Virus record (IMG/VR): IMGVR_UViG_3300045988_175398
Reading direction: 5' to 3' (one strand)
Length of the DNA: 49,837 bases
From: a virus
Part shown: piece after piece, positions 1 to 49,837 of the stretch
How positions within the stretch are numbered: position 1 is the first letter of the stretch
Layout of the letters: each line of letters begins with the position of its first letter
Made by a program: the position numbers and the translations under genes
Notes under the pieces: model-generated
The model's database searches: none
What the model saw: only the letters and a program-made list of their open reading frames with translations
What the model was told of the DNA's origin: nothing

Positions 1-55
1 GCTGGCTATGATTGCAATTTTGGTTTGTGGCTGCTCTGATGATGAGGCAATGAGA
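1..55. repeat. Terminal redundancy of the window: nt 1..55 are identical to 49783..49837 (circular or assembly wrap-around; unit length about 49,782 bp)
   Basis: Direct comparison of the first 55 nt and the last 55 nt of the window; both read gctggctatgattgcaattttggtttgtggctgctctgatgatgaggcaatgaga. Confidence 0.95.
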
Positions 56-3006: not shown

Positions 3007-3285
3007 ATGGATAAAGAAAAGATGATAACATACGCCGTTTCAGGTGCCAAATTCAAAATCATTAGAGTGATGGCTGACGGCAAAGAAAGAACACCAACTG
3101 AGATTTGCAAGATTATTGGCTTGAAAAATTCAGCTCTGTCACATCTTCTTTCTCAGATGAAAAATGCAGGAATTTTGACTGCAAGGAAGCAAAATCGGTT
3201 TATTTACTATCAGATGAACAAAAAAATAATTGTTGAAATTCAAGCAATTAAGACAAATTTTGAAAAAATATTTGAAAAGTTGTAA
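3007..3285 (+). CDS. ArsR/MarR-like winged-helix transcriptional regulator
   Basis: RTPTEICKIIGLKNSALSHLLSQMKNAGIL resembles the ArsR-family HTH recognition helix region; 92 aa. Confidence 0.5.
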   Translation: MDKEKMITYAVSGAKFKIIRVMADGKERTPTEICKIIGLKNSALSHLLSQMKNAGILTARKQNRFIYYQMNKKIIVEIQAIKTNFEKIFEKL

Positions 3286-3370: not shown

Positions 3371-3907
3371 ATGACAAACAATGTAGCAAAAGAAATCGAA
3401 CTGGTATTGGAAACAATGACTGGTGCAAAATTAGCCGAACTTTACAACACAACTGTTCCTGAGAACAAGAAGATTGTTAAATTCAGAGACCACAAAACGG
3501 CTGTTGAAAGAACTTTGGCTGCAGTTCTGGCTTTTCGTGACAGAACAACCCTTGGTTATGGTATTGGAGAATTGTTCAAAATGATTGATGAAAACAAAGG
3601 TGACAAAAAGGCTTCAAAGCCTCAGCACTCTGGCAAAAAATCTCAATTTGAGGGCGGCATTATTAAGTCCAATATGAATGCAAATCCTCGTCGTGAAGGA
3701 ACATGGGGATATAAGTCATTTGAGCTTATCATGGCTGCTGGTGATGAGGGAATTTCTTATGAAGACTTTTTGGCAAAAGGCGGAAGAAATAAAGATTTGG
3801 CTTGGGACTGGAATCACGGATTTGTATCTGTGGATGATGAATCTCTTGAATTGGTGTACAAAAGTAGAGACTTGCCGAAATACAAGAATGTTTTGATGGA
3901 CAAATAA
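3371..3907 (+). CDS. hypothetical protein (178 aa)
   Basis: ORF track; conserved leader immediately upstream. Confidence 0.55.
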   Translation: MTNNVAKEIELVLETMTGAKLAELYNTTVPENKKIVKFRDHKTAVERTLAAVLAFRDRTTLGYGIGELFKMIDENKGDKKASKPQHSGKKSQFEGGIIKSNMNANPRREGTWGYKSFELIMAAGDEGISYEDFLAKGGRNKDLAWDWNHGFVSVDDESLELVYKSRDLPKYKNVLMDK

Positions 3908-3978: not shown

Positions 3979-6051
3979 ATGTCATCAAATACTTATTTCA
4001 AGACTGATAGAAAATCGCTAGCAACCGAAATAAATGAAAATTTCTTGAACAACTTAACATTGGATGCACAAGAAATTGAAGAATTGACAAAAAGAGGAAT
4101 GAAGCAGCAATTTTTTACTCAGGCTGGATATAAGACTTGGCAGAATGGCAAGAATACACAATCAGCGAAAGCTGTGTCCAAAATTGATTCAAGTTATAAT
4201 TTGACAGGGCATCCTGGTTTTTTCATCAATGCAAATGGCTCAAGAGCCTTTAATGCTCAAACTGGGATGCTCATTCCTATCAGAGACATTGGTGGCAATG
4301 TAAATTATATCTTAAACCGTCCGCGCAAGGCAATTAACAATCGCAAATATTTGCTTTGCTCCTCTGGCAATAAAACAGAGGGTGGAAAGGCATTTCCGAC
4401 AACTCATTGTCCTGTGGTGAATGTTAAGGATGGCAAGCCGAAGAATTGTGGTTCAGTTATACGAATCACAGAAGGACCATTAAAGGCAGATATTGCAACA
4501 GCCCTTGGCAATTATTACACATTGGGATTGAATGGTGTAAATACTGCTCCGCAAGACTTGAAGAATGTGCTGCTTGAGCTTGAAGTGAGCACAGTCAAAA
4601 TTGCCCTTGACAGTGAAGACAGTGCGGCAACTTATAAGATGATTGCTGAGCTTCACAAGCTTGTTAAGGATTTAGGGCTTGATGTTGAGATTGAAACTTG
4701 GGATGAAAATTACAAGGGACTTGATGACATTCTTTTTGCAAAAGGCGAATCTTTCATAAGAAGAATGTCAGATGATGAAGTTAAGATGCTGCTTAAAAAG
4801 GCAGGGTTTGGATGGATTCATATTATTTCAACAAAAGAATATACAGATTCAGGATTGAAGCAGAGATTGGACAAATCTCAGTTGGCAAAGAAGTTGAAGC
4901 TTCCGAAAGATAATATGGTTGATGATATGGTGACTGAATCTGTCATCGATATTGTTGACTGTCCGACATTTGCGCCTGGTCAAGAACTTCTGATTGAAGA
5001 GGACGGCTTGCGCAAGATTAACACTTGGGTGAATCCGTGTGTTGAGCCTATTGACGGAGATGCCAGCATTTTTGAAAATCACCTCAAATTCTTGGTTCCG
5101 GATGAACAAGAAAGACAGATTCTGATTGAATGGTTGGCTTATCAAGTTCAGAATCCAGGTGTTAAAATAAGATGGTCTGTTGTGCTATGTGGTAAACATC
5201 AGCAAACTGGTAAATCTACAATTGGACATTTCATGCGGAAAGTTCTTGGTGAGGATAATGTAAAATCACCAAGCAATGAAAGACTGCACGAAATTTACAC
5301 AGATTGGCAAGAGCAGGCTCAACTTGTAATCGTGGAGGAAATTAAGCATTCCGACCGTATTGAGTTGATGAATAAGATGAAGCCTTTTATCACAGAGCCA
5401 ACAACAATGGTTCGCTTGCCTGGTGGCAGAAGCTATACCATGCCGAATAGATACAACATCTTGATGACAACAAACCATGAAGATGCTTTGCTGGTTGACC
5501 AATACGATAAGCGGTATTGCATTATTCAAGTGCCAGTTGAAAGAAACACGGATGAATATTACCAAAGACTGTATGAATTTTTAGATTCACCAGATTGTGC
5601 AGGAGTTCTTATGAATTACTTTAAGAAAATCAAACTTGACAAATTCAACCCAAAGGGGACAGCCCCAATGACAAAACAAAAACTTGTTTCAATTGAGGCA
5701 AGCCGAAATGCTTTAGAGCAATTTGTTTTTGGCAGAGCTGAAGACAGAGCCCACCCATTTAACATGGATGTTGTTTCAATCAGACACATAAAGGCTTCAA
5801 AATCTGTTCCACAAAATCTTTTGAAGTTTTCTGATTTTAAGTGGGCTGAAGTTATGAAAGATGCTGGCTTTAAACAATACGAAAAGCCTGTATATTTGGA
5901 TGATGGCTCAAGATGCAGAATGTGGATTGTTCCGGAAGCTGTCAGCAATTATGAAAATGCAACGCCTGATGAAATTAAACAGGCATTCAATAAATGGCTG
6001 CAGAATTCAGAGCCAGGTGGAAATCCTGTTGATGATGCATTGCCAATGTAA
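3979..6051 (+). CDS. DNA primase/helicase (TOPRIM-type primase fused to D5/P4-like SF3 helicase P-loop NTPase)
   Basis: VIRITEGPLKADIATALG (TOPRIM E...D motif) and WSVVLCGKHQQTGKSTIGHF Walker A; 690 aa. Confidence 0.7.
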   Translation: MSSNTYFKTDRKSLATEINENFLNNLTLDAQEIEELTKRGMKQQFFTQAGYKTWQNGKNTQSAKAVSKIDSSYNLTGHPGFFINANGSRAFNAQTGMLIPIRDIGGNVNYILNRPRKAINNRKYLLCSSGNKTEGGKAFPTTHCPVVNVKDGKPKNCGSVIRITEGPLKADIATALGNYYTLGLNGVNTAPQDLKNVLLELEVSTVKIALDSEDSAATYKMIAELHKLVKDLGLDVEIETWDENYKGLDDILFAKGESFIRRMSDDEVKMLLKKAGFGWIHIISTKEYTDSGLKQRLDKSQLAKKLKLPKDNMVDDMVTESVIDIVDCPTFAPGQELLIEEDGLRKINTWVNPCVEPIDGDASIFENHLKFLVPDEQERQILIEWLAYQVQNPGVKIRWSVVLCGKHQQTGKSTIGHFMRKVLGEDNVKSPSNERLHEIYTDWQEQAQLVIVEEIKHSDRIELMNKMKPFITEPTTMVRLPGGRSYTMPNRYNILMTTNHEDALLVDQYDKRYCIIQVPVERNTDEYYQRLYEFLDSPDCAGVLMNYFKKIKLDKFNPKGTAPMTKQKLVSIEASRNALEQFVFGRAEDRAHPFNMDVVSIRHIKASKSVPQNLLKFSDFKWAEVMKDAGFKQYEKPVYLDDGSRCRMWIVPEAVSNYENATPDEIKQAFNKWLQNSEPGGNPVDDALPM

Positions 6052-9229: not shown

Positions 9230-9239
9230 TGCCAAAAAT

Positions 9240-9270
9240 GGAGGGCAGCCCCTCTGCCCTCCAATCTTTT
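9240..9270 (+). terminator. rho-independent terminator (perfect 9-bp GC-rich hairpin + T tract)
   Basis: GGAGGGCAG-cccct-CTGCCCTCC followed by aatctttt. Confidence 0.65.
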
Positions 9271-9290
9271 AATGCAAAGGAATTAACTAA

Positions 9291-9806
9291 ATGAAAATTG
9301 GAGATATCAAAACAATTCTTGACAGCGGTGATGTGCAAAGATATCACGCCATGCCGTGTGTCAGGGATAAGCAAACAAATTCACAGCACCAATGGCGAGC
9401 ATCTATGATTCTTGGCTTCATCTATAACAAGCCAATATCTTATCAGATGCTTATGGCTTGCCTGCTGCATGACTTTTATGAGATATTCACAGGCGATATC
9501 CCGTCAACTGTAAAATGGGAGCATCCAGAGATTAAGAAGATTGTTGATAGCATTGAAGAGGATTTGGCTATGGCTCACGAAATGTATGTGCCAAGCCAAG
9601 AAGAAAAGGATGCAATCAAGATTGCTGACTGTCTTGAGATGATAACATTTTTGGCTGAGAATACTTCAATTGTTAATTCTGCCAAAGCTCACAAAACTAT
9701 GCTGAATCATATTGAGTGCATTCTTAACAAAGAACAGTACAAATTCAAGCAAGTTTTCAATTCAGATAACATTTACAAAATTGTCGGAGAATACAGTGCA
9801 AGATAG
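9291..9806 (+). CDS. HD-domain phosphohydrolase (YfbR-like 5'-deoxynucleotidase)
   Basis: RYHAMP...H...LLHDFYEIFTGDIP: H, HD, D metal ligands in YfbR-like order; 171 aa. Confidence 0.65.
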   Translation: MKIGDIKTILDSGDVQRYHAMPCVRDKQTNSQHQWRASMILGFIYNKPISYQMLMACLLHDFYEIFTGDIPSTVKWEHPEIKKIVDSIEEDLAMAHEMYVPSQEEKDAIKIADCLEMITFLAENTSIVNSAKAHKTMLNHIECILNKEQYKFKQVFNSDNIYKIVGEYSAR

Positions 9807-13566: not shown

Positions 13567-14652
13567 ATGCTGAATAATATTAAAGTCCGCACAGAATATT
13601 CATTCAGAATAGCATACGGATTCATTGAACAAGTTGCCAAGACTATCCCTGGTGATGCCATTGGCATATGCGATAGACACGGGACTTGGGGACATGTTCA
13701 GTTTGCTAAGTATTGCAAAAAATATGGCAAGAAGCCTATTTTTGGAGTTGAGCTGGCGACTGTTGAAAATGCCAAAGAGAATCAGAAGCAGGAAACAACA
13801 TACATTTCATTTTTGGCTCGCAATAATGCAGGACTGAAAGAATTGTATGAGCTGGCGACAAAGTCAACAGAGCAATTCTATTACACACCAAGAATTGACT
13901 ACAATGATGTTTTGGGAGTTAGTGCCAATATTTTCATCATTCTCTCTAACTTTACAGACTACATGCGAGAAAATGAGGATTTTCGGAAGCTATACAGCAG
14001 AGAAAATGTTTTCCTTGGTTTATCCCCCAACACACCTATGAATGCCCACTCGTATGCCAAAAAAATGCGGATTAAATGTGCAGCTGTTTCTGACAACTAT
14101 ATGCTGAAGCCGGAAGATTATCCTGTTTATCAGATTCTTGCCAGTGGTGCAGCTGAATCAAATATCAATCCAATCCATGTTTTGGATGAAGATGAATGGG
14201 AGCTGCTTGGCTGGGATGATGATGAAGCAATTGCCAATGCAAATTTCATAGCTGCTGAGTGTAATGCTGAATTGCCAAAAGCAGAAATGGTGCATCCGCC
14301 TCGTCCTGACACTTTGTACAATATGTGTGTCAAAGGTGCCAAAGAAAGAGGTGTTGACTTAACAAATGAAGTGTACAAAGCAAGATTAAAGAAAGAGTTG
14401 ACTCTTATTGAAAGAAAAGGATTTGAAGATTATTTTTATTTGATTGCCGACTTGTGCAAATTCAGCAAGAAACATATGCTTGTTGGTCCAGCCCGTGGCA
14501 GCTCATCAGGAAGTCTTGTTTGCTATCTTTTGTATATCACTGATATTGACCCAATTCCATATGATTTGATTTTTGAACGCTTTATTGACATCAATCGTGG
14601 AGGGCACAGATTCAATAAAAAAGTTGTTGACTTTTTTGAAAATATGGAATAA
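13567..14652 (+). CDS. dnaE: DNA polymerase III alpha (DnaE-type) N-terminal fragment: degenerate PHP domain + start of palm
   Basis: GPARGSSSGSLVCYLLYITDIDPIPYDLIFERFI matches the conserved DnaE segment GRGSxAGSLVAYxLxITDxDPL...FERFLNPER; ORF stops just before the catalytic PDxDxDF motif. Confidence 0.7.
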   Translation: MLNNIKVRTEYSFRIAYGFIEQVAKTIPGDAIGICDRHGTWGHVQFAKYCKKYGKKPIFGVELATVENAKENQKQETTYISFLARNNAGLKELYELATKSTEQFYYTPRIDYNDVLGVSANIFIILSNFTDYMRENEDFRKLYSRENVFLGLSPNTPMNAHSYAKKMRIKCAAVSDNYMLKPEDYPVYQILASGAAESNINPIHVLDEDEWELLGWDDDEAIANANFIAAECNAELPKAEMVHPPRPDTLYNMCVKGAKERGVDLTNEVYKARLKKELTLIERKGFEDYFYLIADLCKFSKKHMLVGPARGSSSGSLVCYLLYITDIDPIPYDLIFERFIDINRGGHRFNKKVVDFFENME

Positions 14653-14684: not shown

Positions 14685-15506
14685 ATGCAAGAAAAAGAAG
14701 AGCTTGAAGAACTTTTGAAAAAATACAATTCTCAAAAAAGAGTTGCAGAGATTCTTCATGTTAGCCAAATGGCAATATCTCGCAAGAAAAGGAAACTTGG
14801 AATCACCCATGATGGTAAGATTCTTGCAAATAAAGATTATTCAAAAAGAATGCAGCAATCAGAAATGATGGCAAATAAATATGAATCAAGAGAAATTTCT
14901 CCATATTGGCTTGGCAAAAAACAACCTGAAGAAATGATTGAAAAAAGAGTTGCAAAAATAAAAGGAAAGGCTGCATGGAATTCAGGAACAGCAAAGAAAA
15001 TTGATAGCACCTGCCAGCAGTGTGGCAAAATTTTTCAGCACTCTCCTTCAAGAAAAAGAAAATTTTGTTCACTTGACTGCAGGAATAAATATTTTTCTAT
15101 TTTGTATTCTGATGGAAGGCTTAAAAATAAGAATAATCCGAATTTCGCTAACGGCGAGAAAATACATCTTGCTCACATTCGAGGTTGCTATGAAAATAGA
15201 GTTCTTCCGGAATATACAAGAGGGAAAAAGATAAGACACAATGGCAATACATTCAGAAGCTCATGGGAATATGAATATGCAATCTGGCTTGAAGAAAATT
15301 CAATTGATTATTTATATGAGAGCAAAAGATTTAAGTTATCAGATGGCAGAACATATACACCAGATTTTTATATACCATCTAAAGATGAATTTATAGAAAT
15401 AAAGGGATTCTGGTATGAAAAAGCGAAAGAAAAATTCTGCAAATTTAGACAGGAATATCCTGATATTAAAATTTTAATTATAGAGGACAAGCAATGGAAG
15501 ATTTAA
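14685..15506 (+). CDS. homing-endonuclease-like protein inserted in dnaE (N-terminal HTH, CxxC...CxxC zinc ribbon, C-terminal PD-(D/E)XK nuclease)
   Basis: RVAEILHVSQMAISRKKRKLGI (HTH); CQQCGKIF...CSLDCRNKYF (zinc ribbon); TPDFYIPSKDEFIEIKG (PD...E-x-K); sits exactly between the two DnaE halves. Confidence 0.55.
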   Translation: MQEKEELEELLKKYNSQKRVAEILHVSQMAISRKKRKLGITHDGKILANKDYSKRMQQSEMMANKYESREISPYWLGKKQPEEMIEKRVAKIKGKAAWNSGTAKKIDSTCQQCGKIFQHSPSRKRKFCSLDCRNKYFSILYSDGRLKNKNNPNFANGEKIHLAHIRGCYENRVLPEYTRGKKIRHNGNTFRSSWEYEYAIWLEENSIDYLYESKRFKLSDGRTYTPDFYIPSKDEFIEIKGFWYEKAKEKFCKFRQEYPDIKILIIEDKQWKI

Positions 15507-17530
15507 TTGAAAAAATTGAAGAATTATCCGATAAAAAAGGGCTTAGCAGAAAAATAATCAACAGTGAAATTTCATCATTGCTGTCTTGTGATAAAGTTTT
15601 CAAAAAGATTGAAGCTATGTATGAAGAAGGAAAGAAAATTGATTCTGATAAAATGAATTTTTGGACGCTTTATCTTCTTGGAATAACAGACAAAGAGCCT
15701 ACTCAGCAGCAGCTTGATGAGTGTTTCTATTACATTCCTGACTATCCTGATATTGATATTGACTTCCAAGACACCAAGCGTGATATGGTTTTTGAATACT
15801 TAAAAGAAACATATGGTGCAGAATGCGTTGCCAGAATTGGTTCGGTTAGCCGTTACAAAGCAAAATCTACAATCACTGATGTGGCAAAGGAATTGCAAAT
15901 TCCAGTTTGGGAAGTCGAAGACTTAAAAGGAGCTATCATTGAGCGAAGTGGTGGTGATGCCCGTGCAGCATTCTGTATTATGGACACTTTTAATGAGCTT
16001 GATATTGGCAAGAAAACTCTTGAAAAATATCCGCAGCTGGCTATTGCTGCCAAACTTGAAGCCCATGCCCGCCACACAGGACAGCACGCAGCAGGAACTT
16101 TGGTAACTGCTCATCCATTGAGCAACTATTGCTCTGGTGATGCTCACACAGGTGCAACCCAAATTGATAAAAAGGATGCAGAAGTTCTTGACTTGTTAAA
16201 GATTGATGCTTTGGGGCTTAGAACTTTGACAATCATTCAGGAAATTCTTGACAATGTAGGCTGGACACGTGATGACTTGCTGAATTATCCAATGGATGAC
16301 CAAGAAGCATTTGACATTTTGAACAAAAGAAAATTTACAGGCGTTTTTCAGTTTGAAGGAACAGCACTGCAATCACTTTGTGGACAGATTGATGTCAATG
16401 AGTTTGAAGACATCGTCAGCATCACAGCTTTGGCTCGACCTGGACCATTGGTCAGTGGTGGTGCAACCAAATTCTGTGCAAGAAGGACTGGCAAAGAAAA
16501 AACAACCTATCTGCATCCAATGATGGAAAAGCATACCAAAATTACATATGGCATTGTTGTTTATCAAGAGCAAGTTATGACAATCGGGCGTGATATTGGC
16601 AAGCTATCTTGGGAAGATGTTTCTGCTTTGCGTAAAGCCATGTCAAAATCTCTCGGAAAAGAGTTCTTTGACCAATATTGGGAGAAATTCAAAATTGGTG
16701 CAATTGAGAATGGTTTGACAGAGCAGGAAGCCCAAACAATTTGGGAGCAGATTAACACCATGGGATCTTGGGCATTTAACCGTTCGCATGCCGTCAGCTA
16801 TGGATTAGTTAGCTATTGGACAATGGTTTTGAAGGCAAAATTCCCAATTGAATTTGCAGCTGCAACCTTGCGCAATGCCAAAGATGAAGACCAATGTATC
16901 AGGCTGTTGCGTGAGATGGTTAAGGAAGGATTTGGATATTGTGCATTTGACAAAGAAAAATCTGAAAAGAATTGGAGCATCAAAGACAATACAATCTATG
17001 GCGGATATATCAATGTCAAAGGAATTGGACCAAAGATTGCGGATGATATTGAGTTGAGAAGAAAAGAAGGAAGACCATTGACTCCAAGACAAGAGAAATT
17101 GCTTGAAACAGCTGTTACAAAGTATGACTGTTTGTTTGAAGGCAAAGAAAGATTTGGTGATATTTACGAGCATCCGGAAAAATACAACATTGCCACCAAA
17201 ATAAGCCTGATTGAAGAGTTGGATGGTGATGCTGAGGGTGTTGTGCTTTTCTTGGGCAAAATATCAGAAAAGAACTTGCGTGATGACAACGAACTTATCA
17301 ATGTGGAAAAGCGTGGCGGATATAGAATCAAAGGACAGTCTTTGTTCTTAAACTTCCGCGCTGAAGATGACACAGACAAAATCCTTTGCCGAGTTAACAG
17401 AGACAAATATCTGCAATATGGCAAGCCAATCGTTGAAGATGGCAGAGATGGTGACTGGTACATTTTCAAAGGGCGCAAAATTAAAGGATTGAGAATGGTT
17501 AACATTCTGAGATGGAGAAAAATATCGTGA
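15494..17530 (+). CDS. dnaE: DNA polymerase III alpha (DnaE-type) C-terminal fragment: catalytic palm (PDIDIDF) + fingers/thumb
   Basis: WTLYLLGITDKEPT...YIPDYPDIDIDFQDTKRDMVFEYLKETYG matches DnaE ...LGITDVDPL...PDFDIDF...R..V..Y...KYG; own SD (GAGGA) and ATG. Confidence 0.7.
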   Translation: MEDLIEKIEELSDKKGLSRKIINSEISSLLSCDKVFKKIEAMYEEGKKIDSDKMNFWTLYLLGITDKEPTQQQLDECFYYIPDYPDIDIDFQDTKRDMVFEYLKETYGAECVARIGSVSRYKAKSTITDVAKELQIPVWEVEDLKGAIIERSGGDARAAFCIMDTFNELDIGKKTLEKYPQLAIAAKLEAHARHTGQHAAGTLVTAHPLSNYCSGDAHTGATQIDKKDAEVLDLLKIDALGLRTLTIIQEILDNVGWTRDDLLNYPMDDQEAFDILNKRKFTGVFQFEGTALQSLCGQIDVNEFEDIVSITALARPGPLVSGGATKFCARRTGKEKTTYLHPMMEKHTKITYGIVVYQEQVMTIGRDIGKLSWEDVSALRKAMSKSLGKEFFDQYWEKFKIGAIENGLTEQEAQTIWEQINTMGSWAFNRSHAVSYGLVSYWTMVLKAKFPIEFAAATLRNAKDEDQCIRLLREMVKEGFGYCAFDKEKSEKNWSIKDNTIYGGYINVKGIGPKIADDIELRRKEGRPLTPRQEKLLETAVTKYDCLFEGKERFGDIYEHPEKYNIATKISLIEELDGDAEGVVLFLGKISEKNLRDDNELINVEKRGGYRIKGQSLFLNFRAEDDTDKILCRVNRDKYLQYGKPIVEDGRDGDWYIFKGRKIKGLRMVNILRWRKIS

Positions 17531-20728: not shown

Positions 20729-20881
20729 ATGATATATTATGTTTATGTCAAAGACAAAGATGGAAATCACATTATATATGGACAGAGTGAAGATATTTTT
20801 GAAGCGAATGAAATTTACAGAAAGGCAAAAGAAGAAGGATATGAATATGTTGCCATTTGGGGTAATCTCATAAATTTCTAG
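20729..20881 (+). CDS. small ORF (50 aa) at the convergent strand-switch
   Basis: GGAGAG SD 6 nt before ATG 20729; MIYYVYVKDKDGNHIIYGQSEDIFEANEIYRKAKEEGYEYVAIWGNLINF; not in ORF track (below 60 aa). Confidence 0.4.
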   Translation: MIYYVYVKDKDGNHIIYGQSEDIFEANEIYRKAKEEGYEYVAIWGNLINF

Positions 20882-23602: not shown

Positions 23603-23676
23603 TGGAGGGCGACACTGGAATTGAACCAGCCTAAAAGGATTTGCAGTCCTCTACATAACCGCTCTGTCAATCGCCC
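23603..23676 (-). tRNA. tRNA-Cys (anticodon GCA)
   Basis: Reverse complement reads GGGCGAT...GGTTCAATTCCAGTGTCGCCCTCCA: 7-bp acceptor stem, T-loop GGTTCAATTCC, anticodon loop CTGCAAA, encoded 3' CCA; 74 nt. Confidence 0.75.
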
Positions 23677-42838: not shown

Positions 42839-43309
42839 TCACAATCCTTCATCATCTTTATCAATAACAACAAGAGCAACTCCTCCTTTGACTTCACCAG
42901 ACAGATTGGTGTCTGTTTTGTTTTTCCACTTATCAGATTTGCGATTGTTCAGCCAATATTTGATTGCATTGATGTTTGGTTCATGGTAACGGCTTATTGT
43001 CTCAATTCCCATGCCTGGCACTGCCACCTCTTCTGTGTACTCAAAGCCTGTGGCAATCTTATGCAAAGCATCCACAACAAGCATATCGGCTTTTTCGCCA
43101 CCCTCCTTGGCTGCTTCAGCAAAATCCGGATAATCTACCATCCATTGCAAGAATACCTCCTCAGGCACATTAAAAATGCTGCTAGCGATGTCCTTAAATT
43201 CCATGCCTAACATAACTGCTTGCTTCACCAGTGCTTTGTATTCTGCTCTATATTTATATGCACCTGACTTCTGCTGGCTGCTCTCACCTGGTGCTATCTT
43301 TAAGACCAT
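42839..43309 (-). CDS. terminase small subunit candidate
   Basis: First gene of the late operon, immediately upstream of terL; start set at MVLKIAPGE (GGAG SD 7 nt upstream) instead of track start 43372. Confidence 0.4.
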   Translation of the reverse strand: MVLKIAPGESSQQKSGAYKYRAEYKALVKQAVMLGMEFKDIASSIFNVPEEVFLQWMVDYPDFAEAAKEGGEKADMLVVDALHKIATGFEYTEEVAVPGMGIETISRYHEPNINAIKYWLNNRKSDKWKNKTDTNLSGEVKGGVALVVIDKDDEGL

Positions 43310-43337: not shown

Positions 43338-43366
43338 ATTATAGTTAATTCTGTGGGAAAAGTAAA
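43338..43366 (-). promoter_or_regulatory. sigma70-like promoter (TTTACT-17-TATAAT) driving the late structural operon
   Basis: On minus strand: gggcTTTACTtttcccacagaattaacTATAATttt, 29 nt before the terS ATG. Confidence 0.5.
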
Positions 43367-43456
43367 GCCCAAATATTTTAGGCGGAGAATTTTGTGTGAA
43401 GTGCACCGAGCACATTTTTATAAGCATGCGAAAAATAAGTTTGCAGTTGCTTGCTT

Positions 43457-43486
43457 TTAGCGAAAAATTTTAATTATTTTCGCTAA
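43457..43486. repeat. perfect 10-bp inverted repeat TTAGCGAAAA-n10-TTTTCGCTAA at the left edge of the iteron region
   Basis: Read directly from sequence. Confidence 0.8.
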
Positions 43487-43490
43487 TTCT

Positions 43491-44081
43491 ACTCGGAGTT
43501 ATGCGAAATTTAGCTTTACAGCCCTAAAATCTCAAAATTACATACATTATTTTGTCACTACATTTTTTCTCTAAGGTTTTTTAAACTCCGAGTAGAAATA
43601 GGAAAATATACATTAAGCAACTGTACTCATTAATAATTCTTAACAACAAAAAATTAAGCTAAAACAAGCACTTAACTGTATCTCATTGAACAGATACAGT
43701 TGCTTACTCGGACTTTGAAAATGTCCGAGTGAAAACCACAATTCGACCACATTTTTCTTCAGCTATTTCAACGACTTAGCTCTACTCGGACTTTTTTCAA
43801 GTCCGAGTGAAGTCCGAGTAGAAATTTTTAACAATGTTATTTCAATAACTTAAACAACTATCTTAAATCGCGCCTTTAATAAAAAATCGCATTTTTCACA
43901 CATTTTACAGCTCACAAAAATAATAATCATTATCGTTTTTCACTCGGACTGGCACCCTTTTCACTCGGACTCCGAGTAAAACTCCGAGTGAGCCATTTTT
44001 ATAGTTTAACATGTTGTTTTACAACAATTTTCTTGCATCCAACCAACTTTCTGGCATTCGGACTGATTTCCAACTCCGAGT
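43491..44081. repeat. array of about 13 copies of the near-palindromic 9-mer ACTCGGAGT/ACTCGGACT (and reverse complements), several as 8-9-8 inverted pairs, in an about 850-bp non-coding divergent region
   Basis: Copies at 43491, 43585, 43706, 43723, 43784, 43801, 43811, 43942, 43963, 43969, 43981, 44056 (variant), 44073; no ORF of 60 aa or more that is not anti-sense. Confidence 0.85.
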
Positions 44082-44089
44082 GGGATTTT

Positions 44090-44117
44090 TAGCCGAAAAT
44101 TTTTATTTTTTCGCTAA
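44090..44117. repeat. imperfect inverted repeat AGCCGAAAA-n-TTTTCGCT at the right edge of the iteron region (related to 43457..43486)
   Basis: Read directly from sequence. Confidence 0.6.
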
Positions 44118-44232
44118 AATTGGCACCAGAAACTTTTTGTTTACTTTTGGCATCCATCCTTATAAAATATCTATATAACAAATTGTTTTAACACATAAAT
44201 TCAAAAAAGTTTAGATTTTTGTAAAATAATTG

Positions 44233-44261
44233 TTGACTTTATAGAAAATGTGTTATATAAT
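44233..44261 (+). promoter_or_regulatory. conserved early promoter TTGACT-17-TATAAT with upstream caaaaaagtttagatttttgtaaaataattg block
   Basis: Second copy of the about 45-bp promoter cassette; leader gtaaaggaataaacaATG follows. Confidence 0.7.
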
Positions 44262-44303
44262 GAAAGTGTAAAATGATTAAACAGTTATGTAAAGGAATAA
44301 ACA

Positions 44304-44573
44304 ATGAACAATGCAACTTTAATTCTCCATGCTAAGGCAGCCAACAATATTCCATTGGATGAAGAGCTTCACACCTTTGCTGAGTGGAAGCGTTTGGGCT
44401 TTTCAGTCAAGAAAGGAGAAAAAGCCAGATGCAAAATTGCCATTTGGAATAAATCCATCAAGAGCAAGAAAGATGATGAGGAAGCTCCGCAAGAGGACGA
44501 CAGCTATTTTTACACCAAAGTTGCAGCATTCTTCACTCGTAACCAAGTTCAGTCATTAGATGCAAAGGAATAA
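44304..44573 (+). CDS. hypothetical early protein (89 aa)
   Basis: ORF track. Confidence 0.5.
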   Translation: MNNATLILHAKAANNIPLDEELHTFAEWKRLGFSVKKGEKARCKIAIWNKSIKSKKDDEEAPQEDDSYFYTKVAAFFTRNQVQSLDAKE

Positions 44574-44575
44574 AC

Positions 44576-44743
44576 ATGTTTACAATTGAATCTCTAAAAT
44601 TAAAAGTTATTGGCTTTTGGGACAGATGCTTCTTCCGACACAATAGCCAAGAATCAGGCGTCATTTGTTTGGATGAGGATGGCAATGAACATTTGTATTC
44701 ATATTTTGAGTTAAGAAAGATGCTTAGAAAGGCAGGTGTGTAA
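44576..44743 (+). CDS. small early ORF (55 aa)
   Basis: aaggaataaacATG leader; MFTIESLKLKVIGFWDRCFFRHNSQESGVICLDEDGNEHLYSYFELRKMLRKAGV; stop overlaps next ATG. Confidence 0.4.
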   Translation: MFTIESLKLKVIGFWDRCFFRHNSQESGVICLDEDGNEHLYSYFELRKMLRKAGV

Positions 44744-47855: not shown

Positions 47856-48117
47856 GTTGATGGCACCACACATGTCGTTGCATTGCAATTTATGTGGCAA
47901 AGATGTTTTCAAAAACGAAGAGGATTATTTTATGTTAAAAGACGAGATTTGGGATGAAGTCTGTGATAATGATTATGTCAGCAAAACAGACGTCCTCTGC
48001 AAAGATTGCACAGAATATTGGCTTGACAGAAAGTTGACACCAGAAGATTATTCAGATGCACCAGTTAATAGCTTTTTGAGGCACAAAGATGGAAGTGTTG
48101 GATTCGATAAAAAATAA
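47833..48117 (+). CDS. Cys-rich zinc-binding small protein (94 aa)
   Basis: CNLCGKD ... CKDCTEY CxxC pairs. Confidence 0.4.
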   Translation: MELNMANKLMAPHMSLHCNLCGKDVFKNEEDYFMLKDEIWDEVCDNDYVSKTDVLCKDCTEYWLDRKLTPEDYSDAPVNSFLRHKDGSVGFDKK

Positions 48118-48718
48118 AGACATCATCAAGCTCAGCAAAATTTTTAAGCCGTTAATTAACAAATGGATTCATAAATACGACTGGAGCAGAGTTGACAGAG
48201 AAGATTTGAAGCAGGAAGCGATGTTTGCTGTGATGAGTGCTGTCAAATATTTCGATGTTGAAAAGAGCTCGAGCTTTGGTCTTTATCTTGAATATTGGCT
48301 GCATTATCATCTTGGGCGGTATGTTTTGAGGAATGTCAATCTTGTGAGACCTTGTACCAATTATCTTGTTTTTGAGAGTGCAGAATTATCTGAGGTGACA
48401 AAGAAAGCAATTGATGATTATCACAACTTCAGTTATATTGATATTGATAATCCGGAATGCGAATATCAACTTCCAGAAAAGCCCAAAGACTGTGACAGAG
48501 TCATTTGTGGGAAGCAGCTTAAAAAGCTGGCAAAGAAAGAGCTGTCAGAAAGGACTTATGACATATTGTATGGAAGATGCGATGGCAAGTCATTGAGCCA
48601 GCTTGGCAAAAAATACTCTTTGAGCAAGGAGAGAATCAGACAGATAGAGCTGCTTGCCATTAAGAAAATGAGAAAAAAGTTAGGAATTAGCGAAAATGGA
48701 ACAGAAAAATTTAGTTAA
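48089..48718 (+). CDS. sigma-70 family RNA polymerase sigma factor (small, regions 2 and 4)
   Basis: DLKQEAMFAVMSAVKYFD (region 2.1/2.2) and SLSQLGKKYSLSKERIRQIELLAIKKMRK (region 4.2 HTH). Confidence 0.75.
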   Translation: MEVLDSIKNKDIIKLSKIFKPLINKWIHKYDWSRVDREDLKQEAMFAVMSAVKYFDVEKSSSFGLYLEYWLHYHLGRYVLRNVNLVRPCTNYLVFESAELSEVTKKAIDDYHNFSYIDIDNPECEYQLPEKPKDCDRVICGKQLKKLAKKELSERTYDILYGRCDGKSLSQLGKKYSLSKERIRQIELLAIKKMRKKLGISENGTEKFS

Positions 48719-49762: not shown

Positions 49763-49837
49763 ATGAAGAAAATTTTGTTTATGCTGGCTATGATTGCAAT
49801 TTTGGTTTGTGGCTGCTCTGATGATGAGGCAATGAGA
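49763..49837 (+). CDS. N-terminal part of the small lipoprotein-like ORF that continues at 1..109
   Basis: ATG 49763 after conserved leader; MKKILFMLAMIAILVCGCSDDEAMR... Confidence 0.55.
   Translation, partial: MKKILFMLAMIAILVCGCSDDEAMR

Follow-up and report, generated by a model that had tools for sequence, protein, structure and literature searches.

A unique array of thirteen iteron-like sites in the divergent hub of an uncultured gut phage is a candidate primase-helicase replication origin

A repeat array between two divergent promoters

The window, by which we mean the whole 49,837-nucleotide stretch analysed (IMG/VR record IMGVR_UViG_3300045988_175398), was assembled as a complete circle, its ends overlapping by 55 bp. 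Its packaging genes and its early genes are transcribed away from each other, and the hub between them carries a dense set of short repeats. The initial annotation put the length of this hub at 850 bp; the distance from the terS ATG (43309) to the first early gene (44304) is larger, at about 990 bp. The features discussed below are as follows, with the thirteen repeat sites numbered S1 to S13.

3371..3907, plus strand: uncharacterised ORF of 178 aa, third candidate binder, with a homolog at the hub in a sister lineage
3979..6051, plus strand: primase-helicase of 690 aa, proposed initiator, with a DUF3854 Toprim-like N-terminus, a DUF5906/VapE SF3 helicase and a C-terminal winged helix
42839..43309, minus strand: small terminase TerS (PHROG 309), rival candidate binder
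43338..43366, minus strand: promoter-like site of the packaging/late operon, TTTACT-17-TATAAT, kept in L038, L040 and L041
43457..43486: left bracketing palindrome, perfect, TTAGCGAAAA-N10-TTTTCGCTAA, about 100 bp upstream of the late-promoter -35
43491..43499, plus strand: S1, ACTCGGAGT, an exact match kept in relatives
43585..43593, minus strand: S2, ACTCGGAGT, convergent with S1, centres 94 bp apart
43706..43730, both strands: S3 (plus) and S4 (minus), inverted repeat ACTCGGAC-N9-GTCCGAGT, exact in sequence
43784..43819, both strands: inverted repeat of S5 (plus) and S6 (minus), with S7 (minus) 11 bp beyond, from the site map
43820..43941: central AT-rich spacer of about 29-30% GC flanked by oppositely oriented sites, from the composition profile and site map
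43942..43989: four-site cluster of S8 (plus), S9 (plus), S10 (minus, overlapping S9) and S11 (minus), from the site map
44056..44081: S12 (plus) and S13 (minus), S12 being degenerate here (ATTCGGACT)
44088..44117: right bracketing palindrome, imperfect, about 130 bp upstream of the early-promoter -35
44161..44260: least stable 100-bp duplex of the genome in a nearest-neighbour stability scan, 13-18% GC
44233..44261, plus strand: early promoter-like site, TTGACT-17-TATAAT, kept in relatives

All 13 copies of the motif, tYY-ACTCGGA-S-T, fall inside positions 43,491-44,081, with none elsewhere in the 49.8-kb circular genome; the CTCGGA core is exact in 12 of them and degenerate in one. Exact matches to ACTCGGAST number 11, every one of them within the same interval, against an expectation of 0.06 from dinucleotide shuffles of the window, in which the count never exceeded two. 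Two near-copies, ACTCGGACA at 43722 (minus) and ATTCGGACT at 44056 (plus), bring the total to 13, and the shorter string ACTCGGA occurs 12 times in the window, each time in the hub. The consensus derived from the oriented sites, t-Y-Y-ACTCGGA-S-T-t, is asymmetric and longer than 9 bp. The motif is absent from all other promoter regions of the genome, and the remaining non-coding gaps (2277-2724 and 9230-9711) hold no arrays.

From left to right the orientations run + - / + - / + - -, then the AT-rich stretch 43820-43941, then + + - - / + -. The convergent dyads have 16-17 bp from centre to centre, and site spacing shows no helical phasing (Rayleigh R ≤0.34). Upstream of terS, about 180 bp separate the start codon from the array, and the sites nearest to a -35 element lie about 125 bp (late promoter) and 150 bp (early promoter) upstream of it. 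The left palindrome, whose arms are kept while its spacer varies in L038 and L041, is probably a site for a second, dimeric protein. The least stable segment, a candidate unwinding element, begins about 80 bp past the last site and overlaps the early promoter. Cumulative GC-skew reaches its minimum at 44202 and its maximum at 20862.

Much of the initial description holds at this resolution: its estimate of about 13 copies is the number counted, the two ACTCGGAC-N9-GTCCGAGT inverted repeats that it placed at 43706 and 43784 are both exact, and its late and early promoters are each the best consensus match on their own strand. Its "triple cluster" at 43942-43989 is indeed a cluster, though of four sites, and of the two bracketing palindromes that it reported, both present, only the left one is perfect. 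Its statement that the region has no plausible ORF is borne out, as no hub ORF is preserved throughout the clade (all are broken by stops or frameshifts in L011, and most also in other relatives); an Rfam search of the hub returned only sub-threshold noise. The array is real and non-coding.

Three other explanations were set aside. Against Chi-like sites or restriction-site decoys stand the fixed spacing of the dyads and the consensus extended to 13 nt, both of which point to a protein that binds a specific sequence. Reading the repeats as promoters of the phage sigma factor is at odds with 13 copies in both orientations within one gap, and with a sigma factor that has diverged by 50% where the motif is identical. 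Intrinsic terminators would carry T-tails, and the repeats have none.

Conservation of the sites and their association with a primase-helicase family

At least 12 related gut-phage genomes, among them 11 IMG/VR relatives and L038, retain the sites while the spacers drift, and the array is also present in the gut-metagenome locus L067. Most relatives keep the arms of S3/S4 without change, L011 and L038 almost without change, and the 9-bp spacer between the arms varies. S12, degenerate in the window, is a perfect CACTCGGACT in 11 of 11 IMG/VR relatives. A blastn search with the hub against 50,697 deposited phage records gave no match, a scan of the genome collection found no close relative, and IMG/VR searches seeded with the terS of L061 and the helicase of L056 gave no matches. 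An IMG/VR scan for the operator-like inverted repeat recovered the same clade plus six GC-rich contigs, in which the repeat does not cluster and which we judged to be chance.

The initial annotation had regarded homologous phages with the same gene order but lacking the array as evidence against it. None occurs within the clade. Such phages do exist one step further out, in a sister lineage of about 60 kb (L054, the same as L061/L196; TerL 79% identical) that has no copy of ACTCGGAST and whose hub holds two different conserved arrays in its place. Ten phages with TerL 43-49% identical have neither hub nor motif; distant TerL relatives (L012-L021) differ in gene order and are uninformative on the array itself.

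Such arrays follow the primase-helicase family rather than the terminase. Clustered 7-mers were found at 30 of 60 metagenome helicase loci and at 3 of 60 shuffled controls. In the metagenome loci, 10 arrays began between -200 and +800 nt of the helicase stop codon where 2.97 were expected (P = 2.5e-4), and an independent set of bacterial-genome loci gave 10 where 3.41 were expected (P = 1.4e-3), both tests including near-duplicate loci (L099/L100, L135/L137). On inspection, the family arrays have copies in tandem, two or three at a time, and inverted counterparts on the far side of AT-rich DNA. One apparent array, at L073 (five copies of CGGATTA), was discarded as it lies within coding sequence.

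One of these loci, L099, is an integrase island, where 18 kb of fetched sequence contain no terminase; at another, L097, terS and TerL are more than 1.7 kb from the array and are transcribed toward it. Three other loci, L056, L079 and L096, share the helicase with the window phage at 31-36% identity (L079 and L096 also share a wider replication module) and carry iteron-like arrays in a divergent hub, beside three unrelated terminase types. L079 and L096 are intermediate cases, with the array 5.1 kb and 2.2 kb from the helicase gene, respectively. L056 and L096 have a TCGCTT core in common, and the helicase is the only protein that they detectably share; their putative recognition helices are not alike, and the resemblance of their motifs could be chance.

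These observations yield a simple annotation rule that could be of wide use: an iteron array often goes with a DUF3854/DUF5906 primase-helicase, whether in a phage, an integrative island or a bacterial MAG (Planctomycetota, Chloroflexota, Bacillota). The array usually lies at the 3' end of the gene and, in some phages, at a divergent hub beside the packaging genes.

A candidate iteron-type origin

The initial annotation proposed operators, an origin or a packaging site and chose none. The evidence supports its general idea of a protein-binding array, favours the origin and disfavours classical operators. We place about even confidence in the specific reading that the array is a replication origin of the iteron type, to which the phage primase-helicase binds through its C-terminal winged helix. 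It is favoured because arrays track the primase-helicase family, because this protein has a C-terminal winged helix, and because the elements that putatively read the DNA co-vary with the motif. Both the binding of the helicase to the sites and the start of replication at the array are inferred. The primase-helicase was not among the binders considered in the initial annotation.

The winged helix spans residues ~575-665 (nt ~5701-5973). In the L011/L050 lineage, which keeps the motif, the putative recognition helix KWAEVMKDAGF and the wing YLDDGSRCRMWI are unchanged. In the sister lineage, which lacks the motif, the winged-helix region is 59% identical as against 85% for the remaining helicase, and helix and wing have both changed. 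This co-variation comprises two lineage contrasts, in which TerS and ORF 3371 shift in the same direction; it is not unique to the helicase, because TerS also diverges where the motif is swapped (52% identity, as against 79% for TerL).

Under the origin reading, early transcription from the promoter at 44233 would supply the primase-helicase, whose winged helix would recognise the 13 tYY-ACTCGGA-S-T copies. With these sites in both orientations, mainly as convergent pairs flanking AT-rich spacers, many bound protomers could allow helicase rings to assemble on the DNA and an adjacent AT-rich stretch to melt, either the central spacer (43820-43941) or the segment at 44161-44260. The same protein would then prime synthesis and unwind the DNA, and replication would proceed bidirectionally, co-directional with transcription in both divergent arms.

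Two systems offer precedents. The Rep/PriRep initiator of Staphylococcus aureus pathogenicity islands (SaPIs) is a self-loading SF3 helicase, fused to a primase in some islands, with a C-terminal winged helix, and its origin has 6-12 short repeats on either side of an AT-rich centre, with copies in opposite directions (PMC9371898). The window resembles this arrangement: its 13 short repeats point both ways and surround AT-rich spacers, and its helicase has its domains in the same order. It differs in several respects: SaPI iterons are 5-6 bp long and lie directly downstream of rep, whereas the window has a 7-9-bp core within a consensus of about 13 nt, in an array of about 600 bp that sits some 9.7 kb from the gene, in a divergent hub beside terS; most of its copies form convergent dyads; and SaPI Rep and the window helicase have no detectable sequence relationship beyond the superfamily.

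In satellite phage P4, a single polypeptide, the alpha protein, unites primase, SF3 helicase and a winged-helix domain at the C-terminus that binds the origin (PMC2777425; PDB 1KA8). The primase-helicase of the window likewise ends in a winged helix, and it gives a weak match to TIGR01613, the model of the P4-family primase C-terminus (E = 4e-5, below cutoff). Its N-terminal primase domain, DUF3854 (Toprim-like), may differ from that of P4. P4 iterons (ori and crr) are octamers in both orientations at two loci kilobases apart, which would be a precedent for gene-distant sites, although the window has a single locus.

Set against a P4/SaPI-type origin, for which one would look for at least six short specific copies at a single non-coding locus, the hub has 13. 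Repeats of opposite orientation occupy both flanks of an AT-rich stretch, and the same genome encodes an SF3 primase-helicase with a C-terminal winged helix. One would also look for an origin directly downstream of the initiator gene, and in this respect the window departs from the type: the array is about 9.7 kb upstream of the helicase gene on the circular map, whereas the rule across the family is adjacency, which counts against an origin. So do the convergent pairs with 16-17 bp between centres, a spacing typical of dimeric regulators, the lack of helical phasing, and the two different conserved arrays in the hub of the sister lineage, which imply that such hubs have at least one further array-binding function. 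Two compositional features that favour an origin are both confounded: the GC-skew switch falls where transcription changes direction, and the low-stability segment contains the early promoter. Position alone does not separate an origin from a packaging site, because in all four phage lineages that have a hub array it is directly upstream of the packaging operon.

The analysis provides an uncultured clade of ~50-kb human-gut phages, which is without deposited relatives, with an origin assignment that can be tested and with a named initiator domain. If the assignment is true, the hub fragment and the helicase gene would constitute a minimal replicon for engineering such phages. As P4 and SaPIs have already shown the mechanism, the conceptual advance is modest: a useful annotation and not a new mechanism.

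Alternative readings of the hub

The strongest competitor, though in our judgement a fairly unlikely one, is an upstream regulatory or architectural array. Here a phage protein other than the helicase or TerS would coat the hub and, by looping or by forming a nucleoprotein complex, control the divergent promoters (early shut-off, late turn-on). The array does lie exactly between two conserved sigma-70-like promoters, its convergent dyads with 16-17 bp between centres would suit dimeric HTH or winged-HTH proteins, and two further palindromes stand about 100 and 130 bp upstream of the respective promoters. Classical operators are disfavoured because no site comes within ~125 bp of either promoter, so that none overlaps or abuts one, and because the motif recurs at no other promoter in the genome. 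This is also the point of difference from phi29, in which p4 inverted-repeat sites occupy a divergent early/late hub between A2c/A2b and A3, and p4 together with p6 controls the promoters. The likeness lies in repeated inverted-repeat sites within such a hub, but the phi29 sites overlap or abut their promoters, four within ~220 bp, whereas those of the window number 13 over 600 bp at the distances given above.

As for the protein involved, the initial annotation had suggested binding tests with the ArsR-like protein (3007..3285) and the sigma factor (48089..48718); both are unlikely binders, being only 51% and 50% identical, respectively, in the L011/L050 lineage, whose array is identical. One candidate is the family of ORF 3371-3907, a homolog of which sits at the hub in the sister lineage and whose identity is 83.5% alongside a retained motif and 47.5% alongside a replaced one. 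This family has 660 homologs and no known domain, and searches of Pfam, PHROG, NCBIfam and PDB, profile search included, gave no match, leaving it without a recognisable DNA-binding domain; a single-sequence AF2 model was unusable (pLDDT 38.8). A regulatory array would, moreover, leave the association with the helicase family unexplained.

We consider it unlikely that the array is a pac or cosB-like packaging site. In that reading the N-terminal helix-turn-helix of TerS would bind the motif upstream of its own gene, and the DNA would wrap around the TerS oligomer, positioning TerL for the first cut of headful packaging. TerS, the third protein for which the initial annotation had proposed binding tests, is a possible candidate; its family, with 20 clusters at ≥64% identity, is narrower than covariation analysis requires. 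The array starts close to terS, as noted, and the hub arrays of L056, L079 and L096 also adjoin the packaging operon. The motif-less sister lineage, in which most of the changes in TerS fall in its N-terminal HTH-like region, has a different array beside the terS promoter. TerL shows weak similarity to the PBSX family, headful phages of PBSX-like type such as SPP1 have pac in or near terS, and a permuted genome would agree with the circular assembly. SPP1 pac and lambda cosB consist of repeated TerS-binding motifs beside or upstream of terS, overlapping the promoter region of the packaging operon, and the window array is similarly placed directly upstream of terS.

Several comparisons nevertheless argue against packaging. 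Across related genomes the arrays do not follow the terminase: they accompany the helicase gene at loci whose fetched sequence lacks a terminase or has one at a distance (L099, L097, L135-137 and many bacterial-genome loci), the hub arrays adjoin three unrelated terminase families, L056 and L096 have an iteron core in common and no detectable TerS or TerL similarity, and the ten phages with TerL 43-49% identical lack hub and motif alike. In the L011 lineage the motif is unchanged, although three of the six residues that open the putative recognition helix of TerS are substituted (PEEVFL to PREILL). Characterised pac or cosB sites are much smaller than 600 bp with 13 sites, which counts against pac; compared with those of SPP1 and lambda, the window array is much larger, has more copies and tracks the helicase family rather than the terminase.

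It is conceivable, if improbable, that the array is more than an origin: a shared nucleoprotein hub that couples replication initiation, the early-to-late switch and packaging initiation, and to which the ORF 3371-3907 family binds, either by itself or with the helicase and TerS. Under this reading the sister lineage, in which the ORF 3371 homolog has moved to the hub and the arrays are two, would represent an "unbundled" state.

A plasmid-type partition centromere (parS/parC-like), with the phage persisting as a plasmid, is highly improbable: the array is unique in the genome and clustered short repeats in two orientations do resemble type Ib/II centromeres such as R1 parC, but scans of the non-structural genes against Pfam, PHROG and NCBIfam placed no ParA, ParB, ParM, ParR, integrase or repressor among the annotated proteins, and the genome looks strictly lytic, with its own replication machinery. 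Just as remote is a non-coding RNA or small protein gene that would account for the conservation, a reading largely refuted by the broken hub ORFs and the Rfam search described above. The inverted repeats could form 8-bp hairpins on either strand, but these have no terminator tails, the arm changes in L038 are not compensatory, and the single copies and the overlapping S9/S10 are unable to form hairpins.

Position and composition of the array

The first and last 55 bp of the window (1-55 and 49783-49837) are identical, which shows it to be a complete circularised assembly whose ends are not physical genome ends. The genome is ~49,782 bp with 37.8% GC, and the contig names of its near-identical relatives show that its source is human-gut metagenomes. 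A minus-strand arm of packaging, head, tail and lysis genes extends from terS (42839-43309) down to ~21.4 kb, and a plus-strand arm of early and replication genes extends from 44304 across the assembly end to ~21.4 kb. The array hub is the ~990-bp gap where these arms diverge. No integrase, repressor or partition protein was found among the annotated proteins.

The sole Rfam match in the genome is a single tRNA gene (23606-23676, minus strand), located between the lysis genes and those of the tail end. The gene for DNA polymerase III alpha is interrupted: one ORF (13567-14652) covers the PHP and N-terminal part and another (15494-17530) the remainder, and between them is a 273-aa ORF (14685-15506) with HTH_50 and phage endonuclease I-like domains that resembles a homing-endonuclease insertion. 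The gene is a single undivided ORF in a sister lineage of ~60-kb phages (L054) and bears an intein in another retrieved locus, L058.

The initial annotation described an iteron-like array of about 13 copies in the hub, and this holds: 11 exact copies of ACTCGGAST (0.06 expected), all within 43,491-44,081, and two near-copies give 13 sites.

43722, minus strand: near-copy of ACTCGGAST, ACTCGGACA
44056, plus strand: near-copy of ACTCGGAST, ATTCGGACT

Oriented sites share a longer asymmetric consensus, t-Y-Y-ACTCGGA-S-T-t. Their orientations run (+ -), (+ -), (+ - -), an AT-rich segment, (+ + - -), (+ -), with centre-to-centre gaps of 94, 121, 16, 62, 16, 11, 131, 21, 6, 12, 75 and 17 bp; no helical phasing was found across this 13-site spacing. 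The bracketing palindromes noted earlier are present (TTAGCGAAAA-N10-TTTTCGCTAA), as are the promoters on each side, which are strong, sigma-70-like and directed outward. A fourth exact copy of the half-site TTTTCGCTAA, the only one outside the hub, lies at the 3' end of the sigma-factor gene (48687-48696, minus strand).

Every site is retained in eleven IMG/VR genomes, whose TerL is 90-98% identical, and in a single Logan contig (L038); in all 11 IMG/VR genomes the window's degenerate copy is perfect. Variation among these relatives falls in the spacers, the hairpin loops and even the first early gene. The few hairpin-arm changes in L038 are non-compensatory, which argues that conservation acts on double-stranded DNA sites. 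The ACTCGGA array recurs in a gut-metagenome locus, L067. All ORFs in the gap are broken in the relative L011 and most are broken in the others, bearing out the view that the hub has no plausible ORF, and Rfam gave no match to the hub at gathering thresholds and only noise at E up to 1. The array is genuine and conserved, lies in non-coding DNA and has no second copy in the genome.

The first gene past the conserved early promoter (44262-44600) is a swapped cassette among the otherwise near-identical genomes L001-L011. Only the window and L004 have an ArdC-N-like (anti-restriction-like) gene there (44304-44573); the remaining relatives have unrelated genes in its place.

Candidate binding proteins

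Five proteins were considered as readers of the array, the first three having been proposed in the initial annotation.

3007-3285: ArsR-like protein
48089-48718: sigma factor
42839-43309, minus strand: TerS
3371-3907: unannotated ORF of 178 aa
3979-6051: primase-helicase of 690 aa

The primase-helicase has the same domain layout as P4 alpha (PMC2777425), a layout also in common with SaPI Rep/PriRep, for which the sites read by the winged helix are 6-12 short iterons that flank an AT-rich centre in opposite orientations (PMC9371898). ORF 3371-3907 belongs to a family of at least 660 proteins that lack a match in Pfam, PHROG, NCBIfam or PDB and whose C-terminal block (NPRREGT...G..YE.F...GGR..DL.WD..HG) is conserved; it adjoins the primase-helicase gene in the window, and its homologue in the sister lineage lies at the hub (L061 1352-1837).

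We pieced the sister lineage together from L054/L055 and L061/L196/L197, a join supported by two links: each protein cluster has a member on a contig of 60,246 bp, and each locus closes with a 142-aa ORF running off its edge. The sister TerL is 79% identical to the window's. Its 2.4-kb hub (L061 1837-4251; L196 7130-9522) contains no ACTCGGA and has two conserved arrays, one of GCGACTRGGAG...GTAGTCGC units and one of TATACATAC-N6-CGAATGTAT dyads, which shows that the hubs of these phages can carry sites of more than one kind. Small genes in this hub are swapped between L061 and L196, and a copy of the early-promoter sequence is directed toward terS, not away.

Motif retention and protein identity to the window
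L011/L050: ACTCGGA kept; helicase 92%, helix KWAEVMKDAGF and wing YLDDGSRCRMWI unchanged; ORF 3371 83.5%; TerS 78%; ArsR-like 51%; sigma 50%
Sister, ~60 kb: ACTCGGAST absent; helicase 80% (winged-helix region 59%, other domains 85%), helix and wing changed; ORF 3371 47.5%, moved to hub; TerS 52%; ArsR-like 26%; sigma 39%

These figures make the ArsR-like protein and the sigma factor poor candidates, since they are only 51% and 50% identical where the motif is retained. The helicase, TerS and ORF 3371 would each be compatible with the co-variation, the helicase appearing to fit best.

Arrays linked to related helicases

In three distant phages, an iteron-like array occupies a divergent hub that separates the packaging genes from genes transcribed in the opposite direction. 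The three differ in terminase family.

Hub arrays and terminases of distant phages (helicase identity to the window)
L056 (36%): RCTCGCTT; Terminase_6N with GIY-YIG insert
L079 (34%): RACCGGGT around an AT-rich centre; Terminase_6C
L096 (28%): ATTCGCTT around an AT-rich centre; HNH + Terminase_4 + TerL_ATPase/nuclease

Beyond the helicase and an SF1 helicase (38%), L056 has no detectable similarity to the window. L079, L096 and the window have a wider replication module in common (Pam3 gp32-34-like proteins, ThyX, exonuclease), with PolIII alpha common to L096 and the window, and essentially no packaging genes. L056 and L096 share a TCGCTT core, and no protein other than the helicase is detectably common to them; this resemblance could be chance.

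Scanning metagenomes with aligned sequences of the helicase and homologues yielded 78 loci. A locus was scored as having an array when some 7-mer occurred at least 5 times within 700 bp and this cluster made up at least 60% of that 7-mer's occurrences in the locus; 30/60 loci and 3/60 shuffled controls qualified. Ten metagenome arrays started -200 to +800 nt from the helicase stop codon (2.97 expected; P = 2.5e-4, slightly inflated by two pairs of near-duplicate loci). In bacterial genomes, which supplied an independent set with 38 testable loci, the same interval held 10 arrays (3.41 expected; P = 1.4e-3). By eye, these helicase-linked arrays have the appearance of classical iteron origins, with tandem doublets or triplets at 9-11 bp and inverted copies across AT-rich DNA.

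A further locus, L091, has an 8-bp tandem repeat (CTCGGTGC, ~10 copies, 1-111) at the contig end, 1.2 kb upstream of a primase-helicase gene; the protein is 69% identical to that of L096, whose array motif differs.

The array as a probable replication origin

The best-supported reading, in which we have moderate confidence, is that the array is an iteron origin whose sites are recognised by the winged helix of the primase-helicase that the phage itself encodes. Cumulative GC skew is lowest at 44202 and highest at 20862, and the least stable 100-bp duplex in the genome (44161-44260) lies ~80 bp past the last site. These features are consistent with an origin that has an unwinding element beside it, yet both are confounded by the switch in transcription direction and the early promoter. 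Iteron origins are an already known kind of element. Unlike textbook examples, this array lies ~9.7 kb from its initiator gene, in a divergent hub adjoining terS, spans ~600 bp, and has most of its sites in convergent dyads.

Of the other functions considered, a regulatory or architectural role upstream of the promoters, with another protein binding the array, is less likely; the sites lie between two outward promoters, at least ~125 bp from either. A pac site for TerS is a little less probable again: TerS fits the co-variation and its gene adjoins the hub, but the L011 lineage, which keeps the motif, has three substitutions in the putative TerS recognition helix. Among the helicase-linked loci, L099 is an integrase island with no terminase within the 18 kb fetched, and in L097 terS and TerL lie >1.7 kb from the array and are transcribed toward it.

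The iteron-origin reading would be useful mainly as an annotation rule and as a way towards building a minimal replicon for an uncultured clade of gut phages. Iteron arrays also lie directly 3' of DUF3854-type primase-helicase genes on bacterial MAG contigs (L141-L192; Planctomycetota, Chloroflexota, Bacillota and others) and metagenome contigs (L097-L137), some with 12-16 copies, which suggests that self-replicating integrative elements of this sort form a large class still lacking annotation.
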